Shown here: piece after piece, positions 3,813-22,772 of the stretch
Numbering within the stretch: the stretch's first letter is position 1
Layout: every line of letters starts with the position of its first letter
NCBI GenBank assembly: GCA_001029695.1
Contig: CP011211.1
Location: 570,001-602,000 of the forward strand
From: Candidatus Saccharimonadota bacterium
Lineage (GTDB): Bacteria > Patescibacteriota > Saccharimonadia > Saccharimonadales > Saccharimonadaceae
Direction: 5' to 3'
DNA length: 32,000 bases
The notes under the pieces: model-generated
Told to the model about the DNA's origin: nothing
Database searches by the model: none
What the model saw: only the letters and a program-made list of their open reading frames with translations
Translations under genes and position numbers: made by a program

Positions 3813-4808
3813 CTATAGCTTCTTCAATCCGCCACTGCGGCGATTATGGCTACGTAGAACACGCTTCTTGCGATTTCGTACCACTAGCCAGATACCACCA
3901 GCGATGAGAGCAATCAGAAGTATAAGAATCACAACAGCAGCAATAATCGCTATCTGCGGAACAACCCAAAATGATCTTGTCACTTCAACCGTTTGATTAC
4001 TTTTTCCATATGTGAAAGTTGCACTTACTGTATAGTTACCAAAGCTACCGATATTCTTTAGCGGCACTTCCCAGCGTCGTGCACTGTCAGTCAGTACCAT
4101 GTCTCGCTGGTCTTTATTATTAAAGTCAGCTTCGTAAACTACTTTATTGCCTTGCTTGACAGTGATTTTTCCGAATGGACCAAGCTGAATACCGCCCTTG
4201 TTCTGAAATCTAAATGCAGCCTGAAGGTCATTCGAACTTGTAAAGTATCCACTTGACTTACCATTTTGCTGAATATTGAACTCAGTAAGATCTAGCTTCT
4301 CTACGACATCGCCAGGAACTGTCAAAAGAATCAACGAAGCAACACTTGCACTAAGGTTTACCTGGCCTCCGTCATCAGGGCTTGTTGGAGCAAATCGAAC
4401 TGCACCATAATAACCGCCCGGTTGCGCATCCTCTGGGACACTGATTTCAACATCAACCACCTTCGCTTGACCACCTGGAATCGTAACATCTGCAAGTGGG
4501 GTCATAAATCGCTTCAAGCTGTGTGTTGGCGCATATTTATTCTCATCTAAGATCAGCCCTGGTGTTCCGTTTTCATCAGCAGAAACAAAGTCATTTTCTA
4601 CAGGACGAACCGTGATTGGTGATTTCGTTAAGTTCGTAACCACAGTCTGTACTTTTTTTGTCTCACCAGCTTGAATAGTTACGTCCGTACGAACTGGTGA
4701 AACCTTGAGAGTATTAGCTGTATTAGTCTGAGCAAATGATGCCTGTGTACCTAGTAGCGATACAGCTAATGCAGCAGTTGCTACTATTATCGCTATAGTC
4801 AGCTTCAT
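3813..4808 (-). CDS. Cell-surface protein, DUF916/DUF3324 (WxL-interacting protein)-like, C-terminal TM anchor
   Basis: The ORF track gives 3813..4871. I prefer the ATG at 4808 (MKLTIAIIVATAALAVSLLGTQASFAQ, a clean signal peptide), which is preceded by caggaaaat. The protein is beta-rich, with VVDVEISVPEDAQPGGYYGAVRF and GNYTVSATFTYG...SFWVVP. It ends in a TM helix plus a basic tail (VRNRKKRVLRSHNRR). Size (about 330-350 aa) and architecture match the DUF916+DUF3324 proteins of Gram-positive WxL/Csc loci. It is a paralog of 7108..8169. Confidence 0.7.
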   Translation of the reverse strand: MKLTIAIIVATAALAVSLLGTQASFAQTNTANTLKVSPVRTDVTIQAGETKKVQTVVTNLTKSPITVRPVENDFVSADENGTPGLILDENKYAPTHSLKRFMTPLADVTIPGGQAKVVDVEISVPEDAQPGGYYGAVRFAPTSPDDGGQVNLSASVASLILLTVPGDVVEKLDLTEFNIQQNGKSSGYFTSSNDLQAAFRFQNKGGIQLGPFGKITVKQGNKVVYEADFNNKDQRDMVLTDSARRWEVPLKNIGSFGNYTVSATFTYGKSNQTVEVTRSFWVVPQIAIIAAVVILILLIALIAGGIWLVVRNRKKRVLRSHNRRSGGLKKL

Positions 4809-4889
4809 ATTTTCCTGAAAGTATCGCTTAACTGATATGATATTTTCTCGGTCTGAATAATTATTCTTCATAGTTCAACCAAGATAGAA

Positions 4890-6026
4890 TTAGAATTTAC
4901 CAGTTGCAATAAGTCGAAGGTCAGTTGAATAAAGACCCGCTGGTGTATTTTGATTCACACTTGCGCCAAATGTAAGCTGCATATTCTTACCGTTCACTGG
5001 TGCATTTTCCGTATCAAGGAAAGGATCGCCAAAAGTACTCGTTACTCCAGTCTGATTATCTTGTGCGAAGTTTAGTGCGTACGCAGAATCACTATATCCG
5101 GAACCTGGGAATATTCGGAGATTTCCAATCGGGCTTGTACCGGTATCGGCTAGTGCTGTTGCTGTAACACCAAACTTAGCTTGTCCAAGAGCAACACCTG
5201 TTTGTAGTGCTGGAGCGATATCACAGGTAGTCAAACCTACTCGATTCATACCGCCACATGGCGTATTGCTCTTTAGACTAACAACTGCACCGTTTACTGC
5301 ATTCGTAGAGATTTGAGTAAATATATTACCCGTACTAACTGTACTTGCATTCAATGCAAGCGTATCACTGCCCTCACTAACAGGCTCACCAAGCTTTAGC
5401 ACTGGTGGATTGGCAGCGGCATCTCCACAATTCGCCGTAATGGTTTTGCTTGCTACGCAGAAAACCATACTCTCAAGTACCGCACCAGACACACCAACTG
5501 TCTCAGTGATTGACATAGCTACGCCGCCTTGATCAACAACATCAGGTCCAAGAACGGTAGATGCGTATGCCTGTGCGCTAGTATTGTTCGAATATGTGAC
5601 AATACGCGCATACAGTGGTCCGGCGGCAGTCGGATTATCAATACCCGTTAACTCGACGTCTATAACGTCATTTGCTGCTATAGACTTAGTAATAACCAGT
5701 TTAGTTGCTGTTTGAGCAAGAATCGCGTACCCGCTATCATCAGTCTCCGCCGTGTCAGACTTGAATCCAACTGGAGCGTCACATATTTGGCCTATAGCAG
5801 GACTATTGCTACAAAAATCTAATACAAATGATGTAGCAGCTGCAGCTGCAGTAAACTTGACTTTATATGTTACGTTTTTTGCACTCTTCGATGAGCTGCT
5901 CAGTGCGACCGATCGTTCTGTCACCTGTGCAGCACCAACAAATGTCGGTAATGTAAATGCAAGTAGCAGTGCCATAGCCATAGCAAAATAGCCAACACGA
6001 CGATCTAGTAATTTAATAGAATTCAT
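4890..6026 (-). CDS. Secreted beta-rich surface protein, degenerate WxL-like C-terminal domain (paralog family member 1)
   Basis: 378 aa. GGGAGAG RBS upstream and a signal peptide (AFTLPTFVGAAQV). It shares an N-terminal module with 8226 and 9422 (ERSVALSSS...TYKVKF...FCSNSPAIGQICDAP). The C-terminus reads AKFGV...NTPAGLYSTDLRLIATGKF. Confidence 0.7.
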   Translation of the reverse strand: MNSIKLLDRRVGYFAMAMALLLAFTLPTFVGAAQVTERSVALSSSSKSAKNVTYKVKFTAAAAATSFVLDFCSNSPAIGQICDAPVGFKSDTAETDDSGYAILAQTATKLVITKSIAANDVIDVELTGIDNPTAAGPLYARIVTYSNNTSAQAYASTVLGPDVVDQGGVAMSITETVGVSGAVLESMVFCVASKTITANCGDAAANPPVLKLGEPVSEGSDTLALNASTVSTGNIFTQISTNAVNGAVVSLKSNTPCGGMNRVGLTTCDIAPALQTGVALGQAKFGVTATALADTGTSPIGNLRIFPGSGYSDSAYALNFAQDNQTGVTSTFGDPFLDTENAPVNGKNMQLTFGASVNQNTPAGLYSTDLRLIATGKF

Positions 6027-6128
6027 TCTAATCTCTCCCTTTTTATTTCCTCAACACCCTATTTTGGACTCAGTGTACCACAACACTACTTATGCTTGTC
6101 AATACTTTTTTACAATAAGCGGTATCTA

Positions 6129-7055
6129 CTAGCTAGCTTTGTAGTTTTCATGCTCTTTTAGCATCTTGTTACGAAGTGAGACGAGCTGACTACGCCTGCC
6201 TAGCCAGTACGCTGGTAGTAGTAACACTAGAGCTACAAGCGCTGGCACCCATAATATCTTTGTTGTCGCGCCTGTCTCTTTTTTCGTATCTGTAGATCCA
6301 GCAGCAGTACTATCTACTTTTCCACTCGCCAGAGCGATGACCTGCAGGAATGCACTTACACCGTTTACGTCAGTCACTTTTATATTTACCTGGTATATAC
6401 CAGCCTTTTTATAGGTATGTGCAATCGTCACTACACCGCTAAGCGCCTGGCTCTTCAGCTCCGTCGGCGTACCGTCACCCCAATCTATACTAAATGCGTA
6501 CGGTCCAGTGCCACCAGATAACTGCAATGGCCAGCTAAGCTGACTACTTGCCGGGGCAGAGCGACGACCATATGAGCTTGTAAGCGTAATAAGCGCACCA
6601 AATGCCGTGAACCTTGTATCGGTATAATTTACCGTGACGATATTTGAAGTAGGACCGGGCTGATCTAGCTCGTCATATACGATCGCGCTTAGCTCGTTTA
6701 CTCCGGCAAATAAACTCACCTGCAGACTAAAGCTCCCATTTGCACACATAACGGAGCCGACCATCACGCCATTGTTATATATCTGCACCAACAGCCCATT
6801 TGGACATATACCATTGACCGTGATCGGTGACGATGCGGAGGATGACCCATTTCCAGGTGTCGTAATTGTTGCTCCTTGCGTAGGTGGCGCCTGTGTTTTC
6901 GTAGCTTCAAGTCCGTACGACCCTGGCTTAGGGTTTGGTTCGGGGATTTTGTTGATTGCCGACGCAGGCCGCACAAAAACAAAGAGCGCCAGTAGACACA
7001 TACCGATCGTAATCGGTAGTATCCACTGTGCGCTAAAACGAATCTTATGTACCAT
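6129..7055 (-). CDS. Membrane-anchored surface protein with bacterial Ig-like and PKD domains
   Basis: 308 aa with an N-terminal signal/TM. Ig-like stretch: ITVNGICPNGLLVQIYNNGVMVGSVMCANGSFSLQVSLFAGVNELSAIVYDELDQPG. PKD signature: GGTGPYAFSIDWGDGTPTE...HTYKKAGIYQVNIKVTDVNG. C-terminal TM (ILWVPALVALVLLLPAYWL) plus a basic tail. Confidence 0.75.
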   Translation of the reverse strand: MVHKIRFSAQWILPITIGMCLLALFVFVRPASAINKIPEPNPKPGSYGLEATKTQAPPTQGATITTPGNGSSSASSPITVNGICPNGLLVQIYNNGVMVGSVMCANGSFSLQVSLFAGVNELSAIVYDELDQPGPTSNIVTVNYTDTRFTAFGALITLTSSYGRRSAPASSQLSWPLQLSGGTGPYAFSIDWGDGTPTELKSQALSGVVTIAHTYKKAGIYQVNIKVTDVNGVSAFLQVIALASGKVDSTAAGSTDTKKETGATTKILWVPALVALVLLLPAYWLGRRSQLVSLRNKMLKEHENYKAS

Positions 7056-7107
7056 GCTTGTGCTTATTGTAGCGTGCTAAGGCCTGTTATAAAAGGGATC
7101 GATGTTA

Positions 7108-8169
7108 TTATTTTTTGCGTGACAACTTTTTAGGTCGAGCACCTTGTGGTGTGCGGTTTCGCACTTTTCGAACAATCATCCATATACCAAACGCGATGGC
7201 TGTGACAAGGACGATAAGGACGCTAATAAACCATAGAGGCATATACCAGAACGAAGCAACTCCATTAATCTCTTTAGTGTTATTGCCGTTTTGTCCATAA
7301 AAGAGGTTAAGTGTGGCTGTATAGTAGCCAGGCCATAAGCCTGGGGAGACACAATCCTTTGATTCAGATTTTGTTCCATTAAAATCGACTTCTTGCGCCT
7401 TTAGCTCAATACATGCCGTGTAGGTTCGTGTCTGTCCTATAAGAGCCAGTGACTTATTAGGGTTTACGTTAGAGATAACCCTCTCTCGTCCAAAGATATC
7501 TTTTACAGTGATGGATCCGACCGGTGCTTCTGTCACATTACCATTGTTTTTTAATGTATACGCCATATTACGTGGTTCGTCCATAGTGAAGGAAGTATAC
7601 GCTGATTTTTTATCTTTTGCGGATGATGAGTAGGCGCCAAACTTCTCAAGCTTAAGATCTTCGTTTACTTTACCAGGAATTGAGACAAATGCTAATGTGA
7701 CCCCGGACGCGTTGAGACCAACGTTGCCGCCGTCTGGTGAGCCCGATGAATAGACAATTGCACTATAGTAACTACCAGCACCATGGCCAGCAGGTATATC
7801 AATATTCATATCGATAGTTTTGCTAGACTTAGCTGGAATATTTACAGTCTTGGGTATTTTTATAAAAGGCTTAAGAGACCATGTAGTCTGGGGTTCATCT
7901 TCGGCAAGCAGTAGTTTTGGAGTGCCGCCATCGTCAGTGTACGTAAAATCAACAACACGAAGAGTTAAGTCGAGCGGCTTACTGTTGTCGAGGTTACGAA
8001 TTGTTAATTTATCTTTCGCAGACTTACCTGCTTCGATTGTATAATTCCTTTTCGGTACAATGCTCAGCGACGCTGATGATTGTGCTGCAACTGGAAATGC
8101 CGGTGCAACAAATGCAGCAGTCACAGCTAAGGCTATAGCGGCTATAAAAAAGCTATTAAAGCGTTTCAT
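7108..8169 (-). CDS. Cell-surface protein, DUF916/DUF3324 (WxL-interacting protein)-like, C-terminal TM anchor (paralog of 3813..4808)
   Basis: 353 aa. Signal peptide AFPVAAQSSASLSIVP. Contains IDMNIDIPAGHGAGSYYSAIVY and PGYYTATLNLFYG...SFWYMP. C-terminal TM plus the basic tail VRKVRNRTPQGARPKKLSRKK. GAGGGA RBS upstream. Confidence 0.7.
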   Translation of the reverse strand: MKRFNSFFIAAIALAVTAAFVAPAFPVAAQSSASLSIVPKRNYTIEAGKSAKDKLTIRNLDNSKPLDLTLRVVDFTYTDDGGTPKLLLAEDEPQTTWSLKPFIKIPKTVNIPAKSSKTIDMNIDIPAGHGAGSYYSAIVYSSGSPDGGNVGLNASGVTLAFVSIPGKVNEDLKLEKFGAYSSSAKDKKSAYTSFTMDEPRNMAYTLKNNGNVTEAPVGSITVKDIFGRERVISNVNPNKSLALIGQTRTYTACIELKAQEVDFNGTKSESKDCVSPGLWPGYYTATLNLFYGQNGNNTKEINGVASFWYMPLWFISVLIVLVTAIAFGIWMIVRKVRNRTPQGARPKKLSRKK

Positions 8170-8225
8170 TATTTTATGTTTCCCTCACGTTATTTTACTT
8201 TTTAAGTATAAGCTGTATTGTACCA

Positions 8226-9302
8226 CTAAAAGCGACCGCTTGCTATGTACGTAATCGTTGTACTATATACACCAGCTCGCAGATCTTTGTGTGAGTTTAC
8301 TATGTAACTTATCGTGAACTTCTTCATCAGGCTAACATTCGGTGAATACGCTACAACATCCCCAGATACGTACTTATACTTGTTCGCAATACCATATTCA
8401 GGCGTAGTTACTGCATTTGCCCAAGTACCCTCTGGGTCCTTACCTACTGCAGGTGCGGTATTTGCAACCAGGTTTAACCCAAATTGATTACTTCCTAGCC
8501 TACTTTCCGTCGGCACAGCTGGCGAGTCGATCACACTCGTACCAGCACTCATCGGTATGCCGTTTGCTGTAATTGCGAAACCGCCACTAGCATTTGTACC
8601 AACAGACATTTGTGACTGAGCAAGGAGTGTTGACTGCGGACTCAACTGCCCCATATCTGTATAATTATTCTCATTGGTCTCAGCACAGTTATCGGCTACT
8701 TCTTCCGCTACGCAAAATATCAACATAGGAGGCACTTGAGTTGCAATAGCGATCCCGTCAGTTACCTGACCCTTCACCGAGCCAAAATCAATCTGTGGCC
8801 CAGTAGCATTGGTTGTCGAGTGACTCCTGAGACGAATTGAAAATGACTTACTAGTATCCGTAGGGTTTACTACACCCTCAAACGTATACGATGACCCACT
8901 TACGCCGACCATTCCTGGAGGTCGGGTCAGGACAATATGGTTGGTGGATTTAGATAAGATCGAGTATCCAACTTCACCAGTCTGGCTAGTAAGCGTTGCA
9001 TTTGAAACATCCAGACCCGCAGGTGTTTCGCAGTCATGGTACGGTATTGGGTCATTACAAAACAATAAATCCACTGAGCCAACCGTTAGTGGGCTCATGT
9101 ATCGAAATGACACAGTATATGACGTTGTCTCACCCGGAGCAGTACTGTTCATATATAGACCTCGCTCTTGAAACCGCATAGCAGCAGACGCCGGTACAGC
9201 AAAAATAAAGACCGCAAGAAGCAAAGAAAGCAATGGCTCTGACCGCAATATATGGTGCCAATTGAAACTATGGGCATGATACCGAAACAACTTATGCTGC
9301 AT
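8226..9302 (-). CDS. Secreted beta-rich surface protein, degenerate WxL-like C-terminal domain (paralog family member 2)
   Basis: 358 aa with a hydrophobic signal region (LLSLLLAVFIFAVPASA). Shared N-terminal module: ERGLYMNS...SYTVSF...FCNDPIPYHDCETP. Also contains LIFCVAEEVADNC. C-terminus: NQFGLNLVANTAP...YKYVSGDVVAY...AGVYSTTITYIASGRF. The exact start is uncertain (unusual His-rich N-terminus, no obvious RBS). Confidence 0.7.
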   Translation of the reverse strand: MQHKLFRYHAHSFNWHHILRSEPLLSLLLAVFIFAVPASAAMRFQERGLYMNSTAPGETTSYTVSFRYMSPLTVGSVDLLFCNDPIPYHDCETPAGLDVSNATLTSQTGEVGYSILSKSTNHIVLTRPPGMVGVSGSSYTFEGVVNPTDTSKSFSIRLRSHSTTNATGPQIDFGSVKGQVTDGIAIATQVPPMLIFCVAEEVADNCAETNENNYTDMGQLSPQSTLLAQSQMSVGTNASGGFAITANGIPMSAGTSVIDSPAVPTESRLGSNQFGLNLVANTAPAVGKDPEGTWANAVTTPEYGIANKYKYVSGDVVAYSPNVSLMKKFTISYIVNSHKDLRAGVYSTTITYIASGRF

Positions 9303-9351
9303 AGCTGTTATTGTAGCAGATGAAGTGCACTACTGATATGCATTGAGGCAT

Positions 9352-9382
9352 AAAATAACCGGCCACTGAGACCGGTTATTTT
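9352..9382 (-). terminator. Intrinsic terminator splitting the surface cluster into two transcription units
   Basis: aaaataaccgg (9352-9362) pairs with ccggttatttt (9372-9382). On the minus strand the hairpin is followed by ttttatg, directly downstream of the 9422 stop. Confidence 0.7.
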
Positions 9383-9421
9383 AGTTGTCACATATTATGC
9401 GACATTCAGTATAAAGCTAGC

Positions 9422-11026
9422 TTAGTACTGAGGAGCTGCAAGATAGTTAATCTTGGTTGTGTATACACCAGCTGGAGTGTCTGCAGCGATATTTGCTACA
9501 TAACGCATCTTCGCTGTTGCACAACTAATGACTTGCTTATTTTGCTGAGCAATCGGCACAGGAACTGTTGAGCTTGATTTCTGGAAAGCAAACTTTGCTG
9601 TACCTGCAGTATCACCACTCGCGAGGCTTCCTTCACCTTCATTGTATTCATCACTAGCTGTTTGAATTGGAGTATCAGCAGGATCAGTAATTAATGTAGT
9701 GAATGGAAAAGCACTAACAGGCTTATAGCCAGCATCTGCATCAAGATTGCTATCCTGACGAGCCTTAAGGGCTGGATCTATAAGATCTGCACCAGTATTT
9801 GAACCAGCATTGACAAACGCAAGGCCAAACTGCTCGGTACCAACCTGGTTTACTGTCTTAGTTGGTCCCATTTCACGAATCTCGTCACCTACGGTATTTG
9901 CAAGTGTATTACCTGAATAGTACACAGTTGCACCACCAGATGAGTTAGATGATAGACGCCAGTACGAATTCACATCGTAAGCTTGACGTGTATCAAGTGA
10001 GTTCTCTGCACTTGGGTTACCAAGGTCTAGACGGTTGTTGTTAACCTGAAGGATAGGGTCGCAGGTACCGTGAGTAACACTTGTTCCTTCGCAGTCAGGA
10101 TTTTCCGGAGCAACTGGACAATTGACAACCTTAGTATCACGATTCCGTGTACCTACTGAGAATGACATCGTCTCAAGAACTTTAGTCGTAATGTGGATTG
10201 AATCAGTCATTACGTTAGCGACCGTAACACCACCATCGATGATATTAGCAGCAGTCACTGCTGAGTCACTTTTATACGTATTGATCTTGACGAAGAATGA
10301 ACCTTCACCTGGATTAGTGATGTGATTCGTCTCTGTTGCCTTGAAAATCACCTTAACCTCTTGGTTAAATGCCGGGGTCACACCACTTACGTGTGTTAAA
10401 GTGATATAGTTCCTCTTACCCGTCAGAGCACTGTTGGTGCTAGGATCAGAGTAGGCAGCATCTTCAACGTTAGTTGCATTCATCGCCCAGCCTGTTGATT
10501 GATCAACACCATTCACCAAAACTACGAAGTCCGTACCTGCTTGAGGACTTGTGTAGTTGACGTCAAGGTCACTCTTTTTGACGCCTGCAGCAATGTTCTC
10601 TGCGTTTGTCTTACGGTCATCTGGGGTTGGAGTCCTAGCATCACCGTCATTGTTACCAGGCGCTTGACACAAGCCAGCAGCTTTTGTGCAGTACTGGAAG
10701 GTTATAGCCTTAACTGGGTCATTTGGTGCTGTACTATCGGAACTCACCTTAAAGCTGAAGGTCTCGCCAGTCTTCATGCCATTAGGACCAGAGCCAGCTG
10801 GCGCATACGTTCCCGTGGCATCAGCACTTGGACTAGCGGTTGAATTGCCCGATCCGTCCGTATCCATAAAGCCTGGAGCCGAACTACTAAGCAGTAGGGA
10901 GCGTTCGGTAAGCGGATTTAATGAATCCGCGAAAACCGGCACCGCTGGAACTACTGCTGCTGCAAAAATAGCAACGGCCGCTCCAAGCGTCACGCTCCGC
11001 TGAGCGATTGATTTGAGTGTATACAT
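9422..11026 (-). CDS. Large secreted beta-rich surface protein, WxL-like C-terminal domain (paralog family member 3)
   Basis: 534 aa. AGGAGA RBS and signal peptide (AAAVVPAVPVFADS). Shared module: ERSLLLSSSAPG...FSFKVSS...YCTKAAGLCQAP. Retains one W-x-L (SYWRLSSNSSGGATVYYSG). C-terminus: EQFGLAFVNAG...DTPAGVYTTKINYLAAPQY. Confidence 0.75.
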   Translation of the reverse strand: MYTLKSIAQRSVTLGAAVAIFAAAVVPAVPVFADSLNPLTERSLLLSSSAPGFMDTDGSGNSTASPSADATGTYAPAGSGPNGMKTGETFSFKVSSDSTAPNDPVKAITFQYCTKAAGLCQAPGNNDGDARTPTPDDRKTNAENIAAGVKKSDLDVNYTSPQAGTDFVVLVNGVDQSTGWAMNATNVEDAAYSDPSTNSALTGKRNYITLTHVSGVTPAFNQEVKVIFKATETNHITNPGEGSFFVKINTYKSDSAVTAANIIDGGVTVANVMTDSIHITTKVLETMSFSVGTRNRDTKVVNCPVAPENPDCEGTSVTHGTCDPILQVNNNRLDLGNPSAENSLDTRQAYDVNSYWRLSSNSSGGATVYYSGNTLANTVGDEIREMGPTKTVNQVGTEQFGLAFVNAGSNTGADLIDPALKARQDSNLDADAGYKPVSAFPFTTLITDPADTPIQTASDEYNEGEGSLASGDTAGTAKFAFQKSSSTVPVPIAQQNKQVISCATAKMRYVANIAADTPAGVYTTKINYLAAPQY

Positions 11027-11171
11027 ATTTTGTATATCTCCTGTTGAATTATATGTTTATATTTTTTGGTCCTTTTTCAAGGGGTACAGGCGCATTTTAC
11101 CATTAGCAGCATAGCAAGCGCAATAGATTTCACAACATTTCACGAAATTTTAAGACTTATCCACACCTAAC

Positions 11172-11912
11172 CTAGAAAATCGGTATAACAACTGCAGAAA
11201 AATCGCCTGTATAATGACCCGCTGGTGTCGAGCTTGAGACATTGACGATCATGCTAATAGTGTAATTAGTCTGCCCAGATTCGCTAAGACTGCGAGCCAC
11301 GACGTCACCACTCACGTACTTAAATAGATTTGGAGTACGGTAAGCTTCTTCGATAACACCGAAGCTTGTCTGACTCGATGGTATTTGGATAGGCCCCAGA
11401 CCAACCTGCGGTGCCGTATTTGGCGCGGCATTGATGGCAAATTGCTCCACACCTGGTGTCGCAGCGGTCGGTGTTTTTGGTGTTTTGAGGGTATGGCCGT
11501 CATATTTTGGCGGATCGCCAACTATCTGTAGCATGTAGCCGTCGCTCAGGTAATTGCGGACCTGCACAGTCATCGTCTTTGTCGAGGTCTTCTCGGTACT
11601 CAGTACACCCAGGTTTGACTCACCAGCGCCAACGATTACTTCAAGAAGTGGCTCGCCGTCAACTACAGGACCAAATGCCGCTGAATTGCTCGCACTTTTA
11701 CTTCTTCCACCCGCCATATCTCCTATCGAAGCTTGCGCACAGTACTGCCCAGAACAACTCTTCAGCGTCGAGCCTGAGCTAAACTGAGATTCGGTAACCT
11801 GGTAGTTTGAGGAGTTGGACGTCTCTGCAAATGCCGTTCCCGCGCCACCACAAACAATTGCGCCCATTAGCACCATCAATTTTAAGTAGCTCCCCAGTCT
11901 CCGTTTTTGCAT
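11172..11912 (-). CDS. Small secreted WxL-like protein (paralog family member 4; C-terminal domain only)
   Basis: 246 aa with a signal peptide (GAGTAFAETS). Contains MTVQVRNYLSDGYMLQIVG, where Y-M-L sits in the place of the first W-x-L. Then EQFAINAAPNTAPQVG...FKYVSGDVVAR...STPAGHYTGDFSAVVIPIF, which aligns with the C-termini of 8226, 9422 and 4890. Confidence 0.7.
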   Translation of the reverse strand: MQKRRLGSYLKLMVLMGAIVCGGAGTAFAETSNSSNYQVTESQFSSGSTLKSCSGQYCAQASIGDMAGGRSKSASNSAAFGPVVDGEPLLEVIVGAGESNLGVLSTEKTSTKTMTVQVRNYLSDGYMLQIVGDPPKYDGHTLKTPKTPTAATPGVEQFAINAAPNTAPQVGLGPIQIPSSQTSFGVIEEAYRTPNLFKYVSGDVVARSLSESGQTNYTISMIVNVSSSTPAGHYTGDFSAVVIPIF

Positions 11913-12019: not shown

Positions 12020-13036
12020 ATGGAACCTGACAAAAAAAATACCCCGGCCGCAGAGGGCCAATCACCAGAAGAAGAGCAGCAAGCGCCAGCCGATGCTCTC
12101 AGTCGCACGCCCGATGATCTCGAGCAGGAGCAAGCAGAACAAAAAGCAGCTTCAACCGCGAACTCTAGCACTCCAGCCGAGAAAAAAGTATCTCCTATAA
12201 AGAGATTCTTCAAGAAAATAAATGTCTATCTTCTATTGTTTGTTTTGCTAGTCGTCATCGCAGGAGCCATCACTGCCGTAAACTACCTCAATAGCCAGAA
12301 GACTGCACCTGAACCAAATATAGCAAATCAAAGCCTCACCGAAGAAGCACTAAAACAACTCGCAAATACCGATGCAACTGTCGGTGCAGCGTCACAAACA
12401 CTCAACATCCAAGGCAACACGATCATCGCAGGACAGACATTGATGCGGGGAAATCTTAACGTTGCAGGTAACTTCCAAAGTGGCGGCAGTATCCAGGGAC
12501 CGAGCCTCACTATCTCCGGCAACACCAACCTTGGGTCAACCCAAATCAATAACTTACAAGTAGCCACAAACGCGGCCGTGCAAGGATCGACAACTTTACG
12601 TGATTTAAGTGTTTCTGGTACGTCTACTTTTAGTGGAGCAATCACCGCTTCGCAGATCACTGCCTCCCGGCTCGTACTCAGCGGCAATGCCGTCTTGCAG
12701 GTTCCAAATCATATCAGCTTTACCGGCCCTACACCTGGCCGCGGTGCTATTGGCGCCGCACTTGGAAGTGGTGGAACAGCATCGATTAGTGGCTCTGACA
12801 CAGCCGGCACAGTCAGCATCAACACAGGCAACAATACGGCCGTAGGTTGTTTCGTACGAATTAACTTCGCCCAAGCTTTCACAGCACAGCCACGAGTTAT
12901 TATTAGCCCTATAGGTCCTGGCGCTGGAAAAACAGAATATTATGTCGATCGAAACACAAGCGGCTTTAGTATCTGTGCGAGTAGCCCTGCACCGGCAAAT
13001 CAAGCATTTGCATTCGACTACTTTATCGCTGGATAA
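12020..13036 (+). CDS. Single-pass membrane protein: acidic disordered N-terminus, beta-helix-like repeats, lectin-like C-terminal domain
   Basis: 338 aa. The N-terminal 60 aa are rich in E/Q/P/A. TM: INVYLLLFVLLVVIAGAITAV. Imperfect repeats follow: GNLNVAGNFQSGGSIQGPSLTISGNTNLGSTQINNLQVATNAAVQGSTTLRDLSVSGTSTFSG. The C-terminus (VRINFAQAFTAQPRVIISP...SGFSICA...FAFDYFIAG) resembles the F..F...P.V...GF.i...w.A.G pattern of H-type lectin-like domains; that assignment is tentative. Confidence 0.6.
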   Translation: MEPDKKNTPAAEGQSPEEEQQAPADALSRTPDDLEQEQAEQKAASTANSSTPAEKKVSPIKRFFKKINVYLLLFVLLVVIAGAITAVNYLNSQKTAPEPNIANQSLTEEALKQLANTDATVGAASQTLNIQGNTIIAGQTLMRGNLNVAGNFQSGGSIQGPSLTISGNTNLGSTQINNLQVATNAAVQGSTTLRDLSVSGTSTFSGAITASQITASRLVLSGNAVLQVPNHISFTGPTPGRGAIGAALGSGGTASISGSDTAGTVSINTGNNTAVGCFVRINFAQAFTAQPRVIISPIGPGAGKTEYYVDRNTSGFSICASSPAPANQAFAFDYFIAG

Positions 13037-17218: not shown

Positions 17219-17723
17219 GAAGCGACTCCAATTCTTTTACAAGTAGGTCATGCTGGCTATCGAGTTGCGCCCTCAAACTTAAGTCATGTACTTTATTTGG
17301 GGTTCGCATATACACTCCAGCGACCAAGGCTGGCTGAAGCCCCGCCGCAATAACTACTTGCGGATGTATAGTGGTGCGCAACCACTGAGCAAGCTGGCCT
17401 AAACTTTCACGATCCGCCGGAACAGCAAACGTCATGTGGATAACCGGGAGACTATCTTTTAAAAGACGTAGTTGCTTGATTAGTTCACTTCTCTGTGCGC
17501 TAGTGCCGAGACTGATGTCGTTGCAATCTAAAAACGCAGCCAACTGATCAGAGAAAACTGGCGAATCCGCTACTGATGCACCTGTCTTTGCCCGGACGGC
17601 CATTGTTGTCAGCTCGTTATCAACTCTTTCAAGTTCACGGACAAGACGCGACACATCAACCTTTGTCACGATAGTCGCTGGAAGTGAAAAGCTTGCATAC
17701 ATCTTAGTTTGCGAGTCGCTCAT
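17205..17723 (-). CDS. atpH: F1 ATPase delta (OSCP)-like subunit, divergent N-terminal half
   Basis: The C-terminal half (VIHMTFAVPADRESLGQLAQWL...VVIAAGLQPALVAGVYMRTPNKVHDLSLRAQLD) aligns with the delta C-domain (V.v.sA..L......vdpsliGGv.vr.gd.v.D.Sv...L). The gene's position between the stalk-position gene and alpha also supports the call. I could not align the N-terminal half to canonical delta. Confidence 0.65.
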   Translation of the reverse strand: MSDSQTKMYASFSLPATIVTKVDVSRLVRELERVDNELTTMAVRAKTGASVADSPVFSDQLAAFLDCNDISLGTSAQRSELIKQLRLLKDSLPVIHMTFAVPADRESLGQLAQWLRTTIHPQVVIAAGLQPALVAGVYMRTPNKVHDLSLRAQLDSQHDLLVKELESLRGHK

Positions 17724-18535
17724 AATTTCATATCATCCATGATTTCTTGCTTGTTCGCTTCCATTTGTTGGATAATTGACGGAAGCTGAGCCTTCATGTC
17801 GTACTGATCACCCAAAGCGCCTAGTAGGTAGTGCTCTATGACCTGCGCCATATTCCCCTCAAATGCCTCAACGAGCATAGTCTCTTGGTCCGCTACATTC
17901 TTTTGCAGCGTCACACTTAGCTGTTCGTGCTGCTTCTGTAGTGCTTCCGCACTCTCTGTCACAAGCTTCAAAGCCGACTCGTGAGCCTCTTTCATTGCAG
18001 AAATGCGAGCGCTATTTTCTTCAAATACCGTCGAAAGCATCGCATCCTGACTAGCCACATTTTTCTGCAAGGTCTGCCCAAGTTCATGATGCCGTTCCTG
18101 AAGAGCATGTGCACTTTCCATAACAAGATGAAGTGCTGTGTCTTGAGTTTCTTTCATTGCTTTGCTATTTTGCGCAAACTGGTCGTATAGAGATGCGCTC
18201 AGTTGCTTGTGCTGCTCTTCAAGCTCTGCGGCACTGTGACTCATTGAACGAAGCGCCATGTCCTGTGCGTCTTTTAAGACTTTGCTATTTTCGGCAATCT
18301 GCTTATCGAGCTGTTCGGCAATGTGGTCCTTAAGTTCGGCGCTCGCTTTTGCGATAGTCGCGTTTAGATCTTGCTTAAAAGTTGCGGCGTTGTCATCGAT
18401 TACTTTTTCAAAATGAGACTGTCCTCGTTTGCGGAGATCCTGAAAATACCCATCAAAAAAGCGCTGCACACCATCAGTTGTCTCGTCAACCACTGATTCT
18501 TTGTGCGAATGCTGCTTTTTTTGAAATAATCCCAT
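17720..18535 (-). CDS. Soluble coiled-coil protein with three internal repeats, in the position of the b (atpF) subunit but with no TM helix
   Basis: 271 aa. AAGGTGG RBS, with an ATGA overlap onto atpH. There is no hydrophobic segment anywhere. The sequence is rich in heptad-like Q/E/K/A/L. Three about 40-54-aa repeats begin NSKVLKDAQDMAL..., NSKAMKETQDTAL... and NSARISAMKEAHESAL.... The b-subunit assignment is positional only. Confidence 0.6.
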   Translation of the reverse strand: MGLFQKKQHSHKESVVDETTDGVQRFFDGYFQDLRKRGQSHFEKVIDDNAATFKQDLNATIAKASAELKDHIAEQLDKQIAENSKVLKDAQDMALRSMSHSAAELEEQHKQLSASLYDQFAQNSKAMKETQDTALHLVMESAHALQERHHELGQTLQKNVASQDAMLSTVFEENSARISAMKEAHESALKLVTESAEALQKQHEQLSVTLQKNVADQETMLVEAFEGNMAQVIEHYLLGALGDQYDMKAQLPSIIQQMEANKQEIMDDMKL

Positions 18536-18563
18536 ATTCGTTAACCCACCTTAATCTCTAGCA

Positions 18564-19406
18564 TCATAGCTTCAGTAGTAAATATACCGCAAATAGGCCA
18601 ATAATTAAAATCAATATACTCGTCAAGATAATCTCGAGTAGTGCCCGAAAAATTGACTTCTTCGTCATTGGGTTGCGGCCAATCGAAATCACACCACTGC
18701 GCACCCCGGAATACAATACGGCAATCGCCGCAATAAGACTAACCGCTGTAATTGCCATACTCAAATAAATACGAATAGGGCTCACTTCTTTCTCAGCAAT
18801 CGCCTGTCCAATTCGTTCGAGAATTTCAGGAACTTGGACTTTAGTGCTCTTCTCATTAGGGTTACGTTTGATGTCAATCGTCACGGCAACCTGCCCAAGC
18901 GTAACCGTCTGATTAGTCTTACCTTCCGTATCTTTGAGCGTCGTTGTTCCAAGTGTTACGCCCTTGCCATCAAAGGAGCCAGCGGCACGGCCAAACACAG
19001 TTTTCTCCTCGGTACCCGCTTTCATAGCTACGCCGTTCACAGACGACAGCGTCACATAGTCACCTGTCGCTATCGGCCCACCTTGAGTGCTCACCAGAAC
19101 GTTGTACGTACCCGAGACGGCTACGAATGCTTCATTCTCTAGCCCGCCATTGCTAAGCGTCAATGATAGCTGATTTCGGTCAACTGTCACACCAAACATA
19201 TTCTGGAGCTCTGACTGGGTAGCAATTTTTACACGATCAGAATCTTTGCCTGCCATCTGGACAATCGTCCCAGTGTCGAGTGGTGTATCTGACGCATAGC
19301 CCTGCACGCTACCGCCGCCATAGCTCGCCGCAAGAGCTGGAAGAGAGACAGCTGAAGCAACACCGATGATAACGGCAATGGAAACGATAATTCTCGGTAA
19401 TTTCAC
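18564..19406 (-). CDS. Signal peptide + about 180-aa extracytoplasmic domain + C-terminal 2-TM hairpin with a c-subunit-like GRNP loop; first gene of the ATPase operon
   Basis: 280 aa with a GTG start. Signal peptide MKLPRIIVSIAVIIGVASAVSLPALA/AS. A beta-rich Gly/Thr/Val domain follows. Then IRIYLSMAITAVSLIAAIAVLYSGVRSGVISIGRNPMTKKSIFRALLEIILTSILILIIGLFAVYLLLKL, which has a helix-loop-helix layout and an RNP loop like F-type c subunits (compare ...GYARNPSLKQQLF...). It lacks the GxGxGxG motif and the canonical mid-helix carboxylate. Confidence 0.6.
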   Translation of the reverse strand: MKLPRIIVSIAVIIGVASAVSLPALAASYGGGSVQGYASDTPLDTGTIVQMAGKDSDRVKIATQSELQNMFGVTVDRNQLSLTLSNGGLENEAFVAVSGTYNVLVSTQGGPIATGDYVTLSSVNGVAMKAGTEEKTVFGRAAGSFDGKGVTLGTTTLKDTEGKTNQTVTLGQVAVTIDIKRNPNEKSTKVQVPEILERIGQAIAEKEVSPIRIYLSMAITAVSLIAAIAVLYSGVRSGVISIGRNPMTKKSIFRALLEIILTSILILIIGLFAVYLLLKL

Positions 19407-19658: not shown

Positions 19659-22600
19659 ATGAATATGTGGTGCTACCTTCCTGATAGTGTTAAAACTGTT
19701 CGTCCACTACGACTAGTAGTGGTAGTTTTGTTGTTAGTAGCATTATCTACAACGCTTTTTCTTACATCTATCGCGCGCGCGGTGCCTAGTACAAACAAAA
19801 CTATCAATTTCCAGGGGCGACTCCAGACCTCTGCGGGCGCTGTCGTTGCCGATGGCCACTACAACATCCAGTTCAAGATCTACCAGGACGGCACAGGAAC
19901 AACCGTGGGCAATCCTGGCGGCTCATTGAAATGGACAGAAAGCCATGTCAACAACGGTGGAGCAAATGGCGTAGAAGTCAGAAACGGCTACTTCTCTGTT
20001 AACCTTGGCTCGGTTACTCCATTCGGAACGAGTGTCGACTGGGATCAAGATGCGCTATTCCTATCGATGAATGTCGCTGGAAATAGCGCTACCTGTACAA
20101 CATTCGGCTCTACACCTTGTGGAGCCGATGGTGAAATGCTTCCGATGAAGCGCATTACCGCTACTCCTTACGCCATAAACGCCGGCGCAGTAAATGGCAA
20201 AACTGCAGACAACTTCATCCAGCTTGCCCAAGGAGTACAAACAGATGCAAGCACAAATACAAGCAGTATCCACATCAACAAAACAGGCACCGGCAACCTA
20301 ATCCAACTCCAAAATGCAGGAAATAACGTCTTCAGCGTTACAAACTCCGGTGATATCGAGTTTGGCAGTGGTGGAAACCGCGCCATCTACGTCGGTGGGG
20401 CACCCGAAAATACCACTGGCAATAACCTCACCCTGTTTGCCGGCTATGGGGGAAGTGGCTCAGGCAGTCAAGGTGGCGGACTCTTCCTACAGGGAGGAAG
20501 CGCAGGCGGTGATAATGGAGAGGGTGGAAGTGTTGCAATCACCGGTGGTGTCGGTACTGGAACAGGCAAAAATGGTAGCGTCTACATCGGCGCAAGCGAC
20601 ACCGACGCAGTCCAGATTGGTAGTACAAATCTCACGAGCGGCACTCAGACGATCAATATCGGCAACAACAATGCAGCAGGCGGCACAACAAACATCACTA
20701 TCGGTAGCGGCCCCGGCGCGACAGGCGGCTCGACGAATATTCAGTCAAAAGACGAAACATCCATCACGACAAATGGCACGCGACGCGCAACATTTGCAGG
20801 AGATTCAAATACGCTCTACGTTGGCAATGCCGATGGAAGTGGAAATGCCACAACCGCTAATGGATTCACAATCCAGGGGACGAGCAGTACTGGTAGTAAT
20901 ACGCAAGGTGGTGCACTTACTGTACAGGCCGGTTCAGCCACCAACGGCAATGCCAACGGCGGCAATCTTACACTGAGTGGCGGTTCCGGAAGTGGCTCAG
21001 GTGCAACCGGGCTTGTCGTCATCAATACGCCAACCTTCCAAACAACAACAAACGATACGAACTGCTATACCGGTAGTGCTTTAGTTTCTAGCAGCTGTAC
21101 GTTTACGAGTACAAGCGTCAATAGTTCGTCAGTACTCATTGCGGGATTCACGGCGGCTGGCCAAGTCGCAACCCTCCCTGACCCAGCTATCACTACCGCT
21201 GGCCGTATCATCTATGTCACGGCAGCAAACAGCTCAAAAGAATTTACTCTACGAGCAAACGCTGGTGCTGGTATCGGCGTGGAGCAAAACGTCACCCTAC
21301 GTCAAAATACTACTGCCACAATGATTTGGAATGGATCTGATTGGACTGTAGCAGGGGGATCCAACTCGACAAGCCTTCAAAACACCTACGATAACACCCC
21401 GCAAAATGCAGGCAGTGCCGATATTGTACTTGGAGGCGGTTCAGGAAACGACGGTTTAACTATTCGCGACAATAACACCAATCCTGTTAGCGGCCCTCTT
21501 CTTGACGTGCAAGGCTCAAACACGACATCGCTCTTCTCTGTTAATAGTGATGTCAATGAACTTGCGAGCAACCCAGGAGCAGAAACAGCTGGAGCAACAT
21601 CAACAACCTTCCCGGCAAATACATGGGACGTATCAGGTGCTGCCACCGTCACTCGTCATACTACAGCTGGAAACTACATCGCGTCTGGTCAAGCCTCGAC
21701 TAAGGTTGTCGCTACGGGCGAGATTTCAGGTGCCACAAACACCCTAAAGTCCGCGCTTATACCTGGAAAAACATACACCGTATCAATGTCACTACGCCTA
21801 GAAAGTGGCCCTGGTAACGGATTTGGTATCATCTATGCAGCTGATGGAGTGACCCCTACCGAGAACTGTGTTATCGACGTCACTTTGTCGACAAGTGAAT
21901 GGAAAAAGGTTAGCTGCTCATTCCAAGCCCCAGCATCTGGTATTACCAGCCAAAATGCGATAGCAATCGGTAAAACCACAGAAGCTGCACAAACATTCTA
22001 TGTCGACAACGTCAGTGTCAAGCTAGGCGGCAGCGACAGCACTGGCGCTACTGGAAACGTCCAGGTAGGCGGCGGTGCAAATGGCGGTTCGCCAACTCTA
22101 TTCACACTTGATAAAAACTCATCAGCTCCAGCTGGTTCCAATCACGATGCGCTTCTTGGTAGCATGTACTACGACACTACACTCGGTAAGGTGCAGTGCT
22201 ACGAGTCAGAAGGATGGGGAGCATGTGGTGCAAGTCCTGACAATTTCATCACAATTAGCCCAGAATACTCAGGGGCAGTGATGCATGGTGACGGAATAGG
22301 AACCATAGCAACAGACATATGCTCTGACTCACTCAATATAAATGACGGCAGTAGCGCACAGCCAACCATCTGTGGAAGCAATGAGACCTATAACTTCTAC
22401 AAATGGACCACACCGGAAGCTTCAACTCAATCACGTGCCATCTTCGTAACGTATCAACTCCCTGCTACATTTAAAGATTTCATCCCTGGCTCAACTTCAC
22501 TCATGGGGCGCACTAATAGTTCAGACTCTGCCGTCACATACCAGATCTATCGCAACAACAGTAGTACAGGATTAACCGCTTGCGGCTCCACCGTATCCGT

Positions 22601-22772
22601 CTCGACAGGCTCACAGTCATCGTGGCAAAAAGCAGGAGCCACTGGGTCGGCTGATCCATCGACGTGCGGCTTCGCTGCCGGAGATAGCATTGTTATCAGA
22701 GTTAACCTCAATGCATCAAACAACGCCAACGCCTATGCAAGCAACCTCAACTTCACCTTCAGCAACCACTAA
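19659..22772 (+). CDS. Large (1037 aa) secreted or anchored Gly/Thr/Asn/Ser-rich surface protein with a CBM4/9-like jelly-roll segment
   Basis: N-terminal signal anchor LRLVVVVLLLVALSTTLFLTSIARA. Gly-rich repeat zone at about 20380-21020 (GYGGSGSGSQGGGLFLQGGSAGGDNGEGGSVAITGG...GGNLTLSGGSGSGSGATG), reminiscent of tail-fibre or beta-helix adhesins. The segment at about 21570-22026 (NPGAE...WDVSGAATV...GKTYTVSMSLRLESG...EWKKVSCSFQAP...FYVDNVSVK) looks like a carbohydrate-binding-module fold. C-terminal Cys-containing domain: GSMYYDTTLGKVQCYESEGWGACG. Confidence 0.8.
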   Translation: MNMWCYLPDSVKTVRPLRLVVVVLLLVALSTTLFLTSIARAVPSTNKTINFQGRLQTSAGAVVADGHYNIQFKIYQDGTGTTVGNPGGSLKWTESHVNNGGANGVEVRNGYFSVNLGSVTPFGTSVDWDQDALFLSMNVAGNSATCTTFGSTPCGADGEMLPMKRITATPYAINAGAVNGKTADNFIQLAQGVQTDASTNTSSIHINKTGTGNLIQLQNAGNNVFSVTNSGDIEFGSGGNRAIYVGGAPENTTGNNLTLFAGYGGSGSGSQGGGLFLQGGSAGGDNGEGGSVAITGGVGTGTGKNGSVYIGASDTDAVQIGSTNLTSGTQTINIGNNNAAGGTTNITIGSGPGATGGSTNIQSKDETSITTNGTRRATFAGDSNTLYVGNADGSGNATTANGFTIQGTSSTGSNTQGGALTVQAGSATNGNANGGNLTLSGGSGSGSGATGLVVINTPTFQTTTNDTNCYTGSALVSSSCTFTSTSVNSSSVLIAGFTAAGQVATLPDPAITTAGRIIYVTAANSSKEFTLRANAGAGIGVEQNVTLRQNTTATMIWNGSDWTVAGGSNSTSLQNTYDNTPQNAGSADIVLGGGSGNDGLTIRDNNTNPVSGPLLDVQGSNTTSLFSVNSDVNELASNPGAETAGATSTTFPANTWDVSGAATVTRHTTAGNYIASGQASTKVVATGEISGATNTLKSALIPGKTYTVSMSLRLESGPGNGFGIIYAADGVTPTENCVIDVTLSTSEWKKVSCSFQAPASGITSQNAIAIGKTTEAAQTFYVDNVSVKLGGSDSTGATGNVQVGGGANGGSPTLFTLDKNSSAPAGSNHDALLGSMYYDTTLGKVQCYESEGWGACGASPDNFITISPEYSGAVMHGDGIGTIATDICSDSLNINDGSSAQPTICGSNETYNFYKWTTPEASTQSRAIFVTYQLPATFKDFIPGSTSLMGRTNSSDSAVTYQIYRNNSSTGLTACGSTVSVSTGSQSSWQKAGATGSADPSTCGFAAGDSIVIRVNLNASNNANAYASNLNFTFSNH

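Follow-up and report, generated by a model that had tools for sequence, protein, structure and literature searches.

A probable pam pilus operon in a Candidatus Saccharimonadota genome, and its relationship to the WxL-interacting proteins of Firmicutes

The window analysed here is a stretch of 32,000 nucleotides from the genome of a Candidatus Saccharimonadota bacterium (GenBank assembly GCA_001029695.1, contig CP011211.1, positions 570,001 to 602,000 of the forward strand). Its positions 3813–11912 hold seven open reading frames (ORFs), arranged head to tail on the minus strand, that very probably constitute a pam operon, building a pilus specific to Candidate Phyla Radiation (CPR) bacteria. 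A first-pass annotation had described seven minus-strand genes for exported proteins in a CPR-like genome, and both statements were borne out: an ORF check of the window recovered the genes at these coordinates, all products (7/7) begin with a hydrophobic, signal-like segment, and the seven proteins are identical to AKM80501–AKM80507 of Candidatus Saccharibacteria bacterium.

The gene at the upstream end, pamT (11172–11912), encodes a putative tip pilin of 246 aa, which consists of a pilin C-terminal domain and a short conserved Cys-containing N-terminal segment. It is followed by pamA (9422–11026; major pilin, 534 aa, 55.7 kDa), a terminator-like hairpin (9352–9382, minus strand, 40 nt past the pamA stop codon), pamE (8226–9302; minor or adaptor pilin, 358 aa), pamD (7108–8169; membrane-anchored chaperone-like protein, 353 aa), pamR (6129–7055; RbmA-like/PKD protein, 308 aa, proposed to be the pilus terminator and membrane tether), pamB (4890–6026; major pilin, 378 aa, 38.6 kDa), and pamC (3813–4871; chaperone-like protein anchored in the membrane, with 352 aa if the longest ORF is taken). 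PamC and PamD belong to the WxL-interacting protein (WxLIP)/DUF916 family and are both labelled ‘DUF916 domain-containing protein’ by NCBI. The pamC ORF is probably over-extended, with Met22 (position 4808) rather than position 4871 as the likely start, because residues 1–21 are unconserved and the cluster representative has 331 aa. A C-terminal transmembrane (TM) segment with a basic tail is confined to the 352-, 353-, and 308-aa proteins (PamC, PamD, and PamR), with the segment at residues 303–337 in PamD and 261–286 in PamR.

The assignment to the Pam family rests on the June 2026 release of NCBIfam. PamT matches the equivalog model NF058579 (‘CPR-type pilus protein’) over its full length (292.6 bits, cutoff 240), and PamR matches the equivalog model NF058578 (‘pilus system RbmA-like protein’) at 393.9 bits (cutoff 300). 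The model for the C-terminal domain of the ‘Pam pilus system pilin subunit’ (NF058581, cutoff 55) has matches in PamE (154.7 bits), PamT (141 bits), and PamA (66.3 bits). The remaining relationships within the cluster were established by profile–profile comparison (hhalign), using profiles built from retrieved loci, of which unrelated families score below about 25 per cent. By this measure, the four beta-rich proteins that had been described as paralogues in the first-pass annotation are indeed paralogous to one another (probabilities of 90.6–99.9 per cent, e.g. PamA–PamE 98.6, PamA–PamB 99.8, PamE–PamB 99.8, and PamE–PamT 99.9 per cent). PamC and PamD are likewise paralogues (100 per cent), and their earlier description as proteins with a signal peptide, two beta-sandwich halves, and a C-terminal TM segment with a basic tail agrees with their sequences and, for the two beta-sandwich domains and the TM helix, with the AlphaFold2 (AF2) model of PamC. 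The Ig/PKD protein with a C-terminal TM anchor also proved to be correctly described, the PKD domain of PamR scoring 28.9 bits in Pfam (cutoff 27).

The reference system is that of Candidatus Mycosynbacter amalyticus, in which cryo-EM has resolved filaments of two pilins, PamA (55.3 kDa) and PamB (38.7 kDa), joined by donor-strand exchange; the operon also encodes PamE, the tip protein PamT, which has a C-terminal domain only, the anchor PamR, and two PapD/FimC-like proteins with a C-terminal TM helix, PamC and PamD (bioRxiv 10.64898/2026.03.03.709456). Listed by accession, the M. amalyticus genes run from pamC through B, R, D, E, and A to pamT (Troman et al., bioRxiv 10.64898/2026.03.03.709456), and the operon lies among ATP synthase genes, a co-localised gene for a tail fibre-like protein, and a major facilitator superfamily (MFS) transporter gene (bioRxiv 10.64898/2026.03.03.709456). 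The window agrees with this system in the order of its seven genes, in the masses of the two major pilins (PamA 55.7 versus 55.3 kDa; PamB 38.6 versus 38.7 kDa), in having two TM-anchored chaperone-like proteins together with a TM-anchored RbmA-like PamR, and in its position, with the same three kinds of neighbour (ATP synthase, ‘tail fibre-like’, and MFS transporter genes). Both organisms belong to the class Saccharimonadia. The window represents another species, a groundwater Saccharibacterium, with proteins that are only moderately similar to their relatives; the match to M. amalyticus is one of gene order, protein size, and family models.

Conservation was assessed in 80 loci retrieved from Saccharimonadales, one genome per species and M. 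amalyticus not among them. The order T-A-E-D-R-B-C is present wherever the contig reaches, apart from two local rearrangements (loci L056 and L076), and the common arrangement consists of atpD–atpC, a 338-aa gene on the opposite strand, and then pamT-A-E-D-R-B-C; the comparison across related genomes that had been suggested in the first-pass annotation thus returned the same arrangement in these loci. Identity of the encoded proteins to those of the window ranges from 30 to 79 per cent, and the major pilins diverge fast between loci (PamA 30–62 per cent, PamB 31–57 per cent).

Within the pilins, a peak of conservation lies ahead of the C-terminal domain (PamA 262–291, PamE 187–198, PamB 181–190), and further peaks fall on the first strand of the C-terminal domain, with the pattern ‘...S.N..GG...’, on the final strand, and on the N-terminus of mature PamR. 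These sites are the ones that the Pam preprint assigns to the linker that is donated, the groove that accepts it, and the strand that terminates the filament, which lends indirect support to strand exchange in the system described here. In the pilins of the window and of the 80 retrieved loci, Gly occupies position −15 in 280 of 280 proteins, and the C-terminal residue is Phe or Tyr in 279 of 280, always Tyr in PamA and always Phe in PamE. Together, the Gly and the terminal aromatic residue provide a simple signature by which Pam pilins can be found. It resembles the conserved C-terminal motif of chaperone-usher pilins, in which a Gly stands 14 residues from the end and the penultimate residue is Tyr.

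AF2 modelled the C-terminal domain of PamT with confidence, and the best Foldseek match of the model is 2wmp_B, the PapGII pilin domain in complex with PapD (E 6.7e-4, TM-score 0.55). Further matches include FimF, FimG, FimA, FimI, PapH, PapA, CS20, Csu, CfaB, and TasA, with 2wmp_B, 3me0_B, 9fy9_F, 8psv_A, 2j2z_B, 7zl4, and 4y2n as the top identifiers and 6fjy_B also present. Searches of PDB sequences with PamA and PamB and with the profiles of PamT and of PamC and PamD returned nothing useful. PamT also has a conserved N-terminal segment (residues ~30–77, positions 11682–11822) with invariant S34, C53, S54, C58, and G64, of which residues 49–62 are modelled by AF2, at low confidence, as a short beta-hairpin; this segment may serve as a tip element clamped by a disulfide, or as a strand with which the subunit caps itself. 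A well-conserved motif, approximately ‘TER(S/G)..L.SS..’, is found directly past the signal peptide in PamA (35–50), PamB (34–47), and PamE (42–56).

The hairpin at 9352–9382 has a stem of 11–13 bp, preceded by an A-tract and followed by UUAU, and the pamA–pamE intergenic region folds with z = −4.4. A consensus terminator scan did not report it, probably due to its partly paired U-tract. When a hairpin was counted at a junction if its free energy (dG) was −12 kcal/mol or lower, one was present between pamA and pamE in 50 of 51 loci (median dG −21.6 kcal/mol) and between pamB and pamC in 51 of 67 (−19.6 kcal/mol). The figures at the other junctions were 9 of 54 for pamT–pamA (−9.6 kcal/mol), 1 of 73 for pamE–pamD (−4.1 kcal/mol), 20 of 77 for pamD–pamR (−8.4 kcal/mol), and 9 of 69 for pamR–pamB (−8.3 kcal/mol). 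The stem sequences vary among loci with pairing kept. The strong hairpins stand at the 3′ junctions of pamA and pamB, the two genes whose products make up most of the filament, and this pattern suggests that subunit stoichiometry is controlled at the level of transcription; similarly, in chaperone-usher systems, a stem-loop follows the major pilin gene papA. A consensus promoter scan, at chance level overall (15 sites versus 15.7 expected), placed no promoter-like site between the hairpin and pamE. In the first-pass annotation, the hairpin had been taken as a terminator that splits the cluster into a two-gene and a five-gene unit; the hairpin is real, and it would act as a partial terminator or 3′-stabilising element that sets stoichiometry rather than as a full split into two operons.

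Among the known systems close to this cluster are the chaperone-usher pili of Gram-negative bacteria (Pap, Fim, CFA/I, Caf1, and Csu), which share with Pam an incomplete Ig-like pilin (best matches PapG, FimF, and FimA), a two-domain PapD-like chaperone, donor-strand exchange, a terminator subunit, and a subunit at the tip that lacks a donor strand. They differ in having an usher and an outer membrane, whereas Pam has neither and its chaperones are membrane-anchored; Pfam and NCBIfam detected no usher family, whether in the cluster or in its flanks. In addition, the donor in chaperone-usher pili is an N-terminal extension and the filament is coiled, whereas Pam has two-domain pilins, an internal linker as donor, and an extended filament.

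We infer the following order of assembly, along with roles for the chaperones, the anchor, and the hairpin and a function in host attachment. All seven products would be exported through Sec. The four paralogous pilins would share an incomplete Ig-like C-terminal domain, the groove of which would be capped by PamC and PamD, two-domain PapD-like chaperones held in the membrane by their C-terminal helix, until exchange takes place; an usher would be missing because there is no outer membrane. PamA, PamB, and PamE would each donate the conserved linker strand between their N- and C-terminal domains into the C-terminal domain of a neighbour, and this donor-strand exchange would yield an extended, uncoiled filament. 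PamT, having the acceptor domain only, would cap the distal tip, PamA and PamB would form the bulk, and PamE would join the filament to PamR, the N-terminal strand of which would fill the last groove and the TM helix of which would tether the pilus to the membrane. The hairpins after pamA and, in most relatives, after pamB would probably shift production towards the major pilins relative to the accessory proteins. The present analysis establishes orthology, synteny, the conservation pattern, and predicted folds, and the filaments of PamA and PamB and their strand exchange come from cryo-EM of M. amalyticus only.

Because Saccharibacteria are obligate epibionts of Actinobacteria, the operon is relevant to how ultrasmall bacteria locate their hosts and stay attached to them; in many Saccharibacteria, its product is probably the main filament for host contact at long range. 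The earlier idea of an exported host-attachment structure thus survives in general form, as a putative pilus system. The aspect of host contact has already been published for a related species, and the locus is orthologous to an already described system; what keeps it of interest are the relationship of PamC and PamD to WxLIPs and the hairpins past the major pilin genes.

Several points weigh against the identification of the locus as a pam operon. PamB scores 43.7 bits on NF058581, under the cutoff of 55, and PamC and PamD are matched by no NCBIfam model, their names resting on position, architecture, and fold. The structural likeness of PamT to other pilins is weak (TM-scores of 0.3–0.55, with a single match at E ≤ 1e-3), and the N-terminal third of its model is of low confidence; the cryo-EM structures of PamA and PamB are not in the PDB copy searched, and the fold comparison was made with other pilins. 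A post-pamB hairpin is common in relatives and absent from the window, where the pamB–pamC region (4809–4889) contains no strong hairpin (minimum free energy −11.8, z = −0.6). Finally, no retraction or dedicated secretion machinery is known for the Pam system.

The first-pass annotation had assigned the cluster to the WxL/Csc type, with PamC and PamD as DUF916–DUF3324 proteins, and the DUF916 part of that assignment is supported: PamC and PamD are homologues of WxLIPs. Of the Pfam families that had been named there as a check, PF06030 (DUF916/WxLIP_PGBD, cutoff 27.3) matches PamC at 31.3 bits, with PamD just under the cutoff at 25.3 bits, and neither PF13731 (WxL) nor PF11797 (DUF3324) has a match. 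A joint PamC and PamD profile aligns to a profile of 11 diverse Firmicutes WxLIPs at 98.7 per cent (hhalign, E 1.7e-16) over 263 columns, which take in both domains and the TM helix; PamD reaches 98.2 per cent against the same profile, and the DUF916 half alone 97 per cent (E 8e-11). In reciprocal hidden Markov model (HMM) searches, the Pam and WxLIP families were each recovered from the other's loci. The evidence from fold comes from the model of PamC (predicted local distance difference test score 81; two beta-sandwich domains and a TM helix), to which PamD is linked by hhalign. The best PDB matches of this model in Foldseek, another check that had been suggested, are 9i25_C (‘WxLIP from E. 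faecium locus A bound to long WxL’, E 5.7e-11) and 9i1y, both from solved WxLIP structures released in January 2026, followed by CfaA, FimC, DraB, and Caf1M (E 2e-8 to 7e-6); the alignment to the WxLIP has 280 columns on a 251-residue target and spans both domains. The relationship is remote, because an HMM-to-sequence search from the PamC and PamD profile misses EfmWxLIP1.

It could be argued from this homology that the locus is a true WxL/Csc cluster, that is, one in which WxL proteins are held non-covalently on peptidoglycan by a DUF916–DUF3324 membrane protein, forming a surface complex and no filament. Csc/WxL clusters (Lactobacillales, Listeria, and Bacillus) share with the locus a membrane-anchored two-domain protein, which is homologous in its DUF916 half, has the same overall architecture, and is the best structural match. 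For comparison, we used WxL clusters on plasmids of Enterococcus, Listeria, Bacillus, Lactococcus, and Lactiplantibacillus, along with WxLIP genes of Melissococcus and Latilactobacillus; these clusters comprise an LPXTG protein, a small WxL protein, a WxLIP, and a large WxL protein, and the domains were confirmed with Pfam in one of them (E. mundtii pQY182). Their layout parallels that of the Pam locus in having one domain-only subunit, larger subunits with a C-terminal domain in common, and a small anchored protein. The two systems differ in that a Csc/WxL cluster contains WxL proteins, a WxLIP (DUF916–DUF3324–TM helix), and an LPXTG protein, whereas the Pam subunits have no WxL domains, and in that a single WxLIP and a peptidoglycan-bound complex stand against two chaperone paralogues, a TM anchor, and a filament.

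The pilins themselves argue against a WxL/Csc cluster. No Pfam match to the WxL domain was found in the four of them at E ≤ 1, and comparison with two independent WxL profiles (one from 120 small WxL proteins; a second from six genera, which finds the first at 100 per cent) gave at most 17.6 per cent over 11–22 columns, the level of the negative controls in every hhalign mode. WxL HMMs found nothing in the 80 loci and the window, Pam pilin HMMs found nothing in the WxL loci, and none of 120 PamT homologues has any Pfam domain. Trp is absent from PamT and PamB, and an LPXTG motif from all seven proteins; where a WxL cluster has a small LPXTG-anchored protein of the CscD type, the locus has PamR with its TM helix. 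The solved WxL domain 9i25_A, which was found via the WxL profile (the large WxL protein of E. mundtii alone found nothing among PDB sequences), is not in the top 50 Foldseek matches of PamT; the structural check thus favoured a WxLIP for PamC, and pilins rather than a WxL domain for PamT.

A positional likeness emerged when the Pam C-terminal motif was scored with a positional position-specific scoring matrix: in 14 of 32 WxL proteins, its best-scoring segment coincides with WxL motif 2 in a single register, but with scores no better than those of control families. An alignment of the two WxL motifs by eye with ‘DGYMLQIV’ and ‘AGHYTGDFSAVV’ in PamT was rejected, as no hhalign mode supports it. 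Moreover, the DUF3324 half alone reaches 14 per cent against the WxLIP profile, which is not significant, PF11797 is listed for 0 of 120 homologues, and the orthologous proteins form filaments by cryo-EM. A true WxL/Csc cluster is therefore very unlikely, and the WxL/Csc label did not stand, since the refuting condition that the first-pass annotation had named, no WxL similarity in the four paralogues, is what was observed: the locus shares one component family with WxL clusters and is not a WxL cluster itself. Among the clusters compared, Listeria monocytogenes plasmid pLIS25 (L093:3254–10639) offers an unusual context, in which WxL and DUF916 genes are followed by a weak match to a Gram-positive pilin D1 domain; the same stretch also encodes a thioester-domain protein and a T2SS/T4P/T4SS-family ATPase (type II secretion, type IV pilus, and type IV secretion).

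Less probable still, and in our view barely credible, is that the products are envelope or surface-layer proteins that do not polymerise in this lineage, the operon being kept for a static coat or for adhesins. In its favour, the direct evidence of filaments comes from M. amalyticus, and the fast divergence of PamA and PamB given above could be cited as well, but the predicted strand-exchange positions are the most conserved parts of the pilins, and the whole seven-gene set is kept, in order, in related genomes. A sortase-assembled pilus of the Gram-positive type, as a monoderm-like envelope and Ig-like subunits might suggest, can be dismissed as practically excluded by the LPXTG count of 0/7, by the lack of any sortase or Gram-positive pilin family detected in the cluster with Pfam or NCBIfam, and by the free aromatic C-terminus of the pilins.

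With the locus thus read as a pam operon, the relationship of its chaperones to WxLIPs acquires a wider meaning. In AF2 prediction, a strand of DUF916 inserts into the WxL domain (PMC10599100). For Csc/WxL and Pam alike, insertion of a beta-strand from an accessory protein into a subunit's C-terminal domain is predicted. Tentatively, and as a possibility that we do not favour over its negation, we propose that PamC and PamD, Firmicutes WxLIPs, and similar actinobacterial DUF916 proteins form one family of membrane-anchored, PapD-like, usher-less chaperones in single-membrane envelopes, which would cap subunits by beta-strand complementation, and that Csc/WxL clusters and the Pam pilus would be two branches of one ancient monoderm pathway with swapped or diverged subunits. 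If this is true, WxLIP would be a chaperone or assembly factor, and binding to peptidoglycan and host would not be its main role. By structure and by profile, the closest relatives of WxLIP are the Pam chaperones, which suggests a chaperone role for the widespread DUF916 family and links two fields that have not cited each other. WxL and DUF916 go unmentioned in the Pam preprint, and in the searchable literature 9i25 and 9i1y are described in no paper, nor is WxLIP linked to pilus chaperones in any.

Outside the CPR, the protein in our sample that comes closest to PamC and PamD (hmmsearch E 2e-14) is a DUF916 protein of the same architecture, encoded on a plasmid of Streptomyces goshikiensis (NZ_CP115937.1; L083:5846–8804). 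It has a signal peptide and, at the C-terminus, a TM segment and the tail RRRRK, and it is nearer to PamC and PamD than to Firmicutes WxLIPs. The PamC and PamD profile matches it over both domains (97.8 per cent), and the Firmicutes WxLIP profile over the N-domain only. Directly upstream lies a gene for a GH43-ricin protein with a WxL-like C-terminus (DFRGGTSGWSL ... GDYAGTLTLTLL), which scores 19.5 bits in Pfam (under the cutoff) and 87 per cent in hhalign against WxL. As a candidate bridge between WxL proteins and Pam pilins, this protein was rejected, its C-terminus matching no Pam pilin.

A published structure-based annotation of the cultivated Saccharibacterium Southlakia epibionticum ML1 (supplement of PMC10633639) provides a second point of contact. 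This organism has a separate WxL-style mini-cluster, SEML1_0625–0628, which consists of an LPXTG-like protein (SEML1_0625), a DUF916 protein (SEML1_0626), a small protein with a ‘WxL domain-containing protein’ as best AlphaFold-DB match (TM-score 0.85) and the CsuE tip subunit 6fjy_B as ECOD match (SEML1_0627), and a giant RCC1/FnIII protein (SEML1_0628) (PMC10633639). Taken together with the match of PamT to 6fjy_B and the predicted insertion of the DUF916 strand, this cluster may place WxL systems and Pam pili as branches of a single usher-less chaperone pathway. In ML1, atpC is followed by folC, there is no pam operon at that position, and transposon sequencing of ML1 thus yields no fitness data for Pam.

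The neighbourhood of the operon in the window consists of ATP synthase genes, the 338-aa gene, and an MFS transporter gene. The 338-aa membrane protein, encoded at 12020–13036 on the plus strand and divergent from the operon, probably corresponds to what the Pam paper calls a ‘tail fibre-like protein’; its gene is always divergent and lies between atpC and pamT in related loci. The protein has an acidic N-terminus, a single TM segment (62–92), a repetitive Gly/Ser/Thr/Asn-rich region, and a weak bactofilin-like match (19.3 bits). Further upstream, two ORFs of 271 and 280 aa (17720–19406), located upstream of the ATP synthase delta gene, and a plus-strand ORF of 1037 aa (19659–22772) have no Pfam match. 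The 20–23 kb stretch of the window has a GC content of 0.49–0.53, higher than the remainder, and a strongly positive AT skew.

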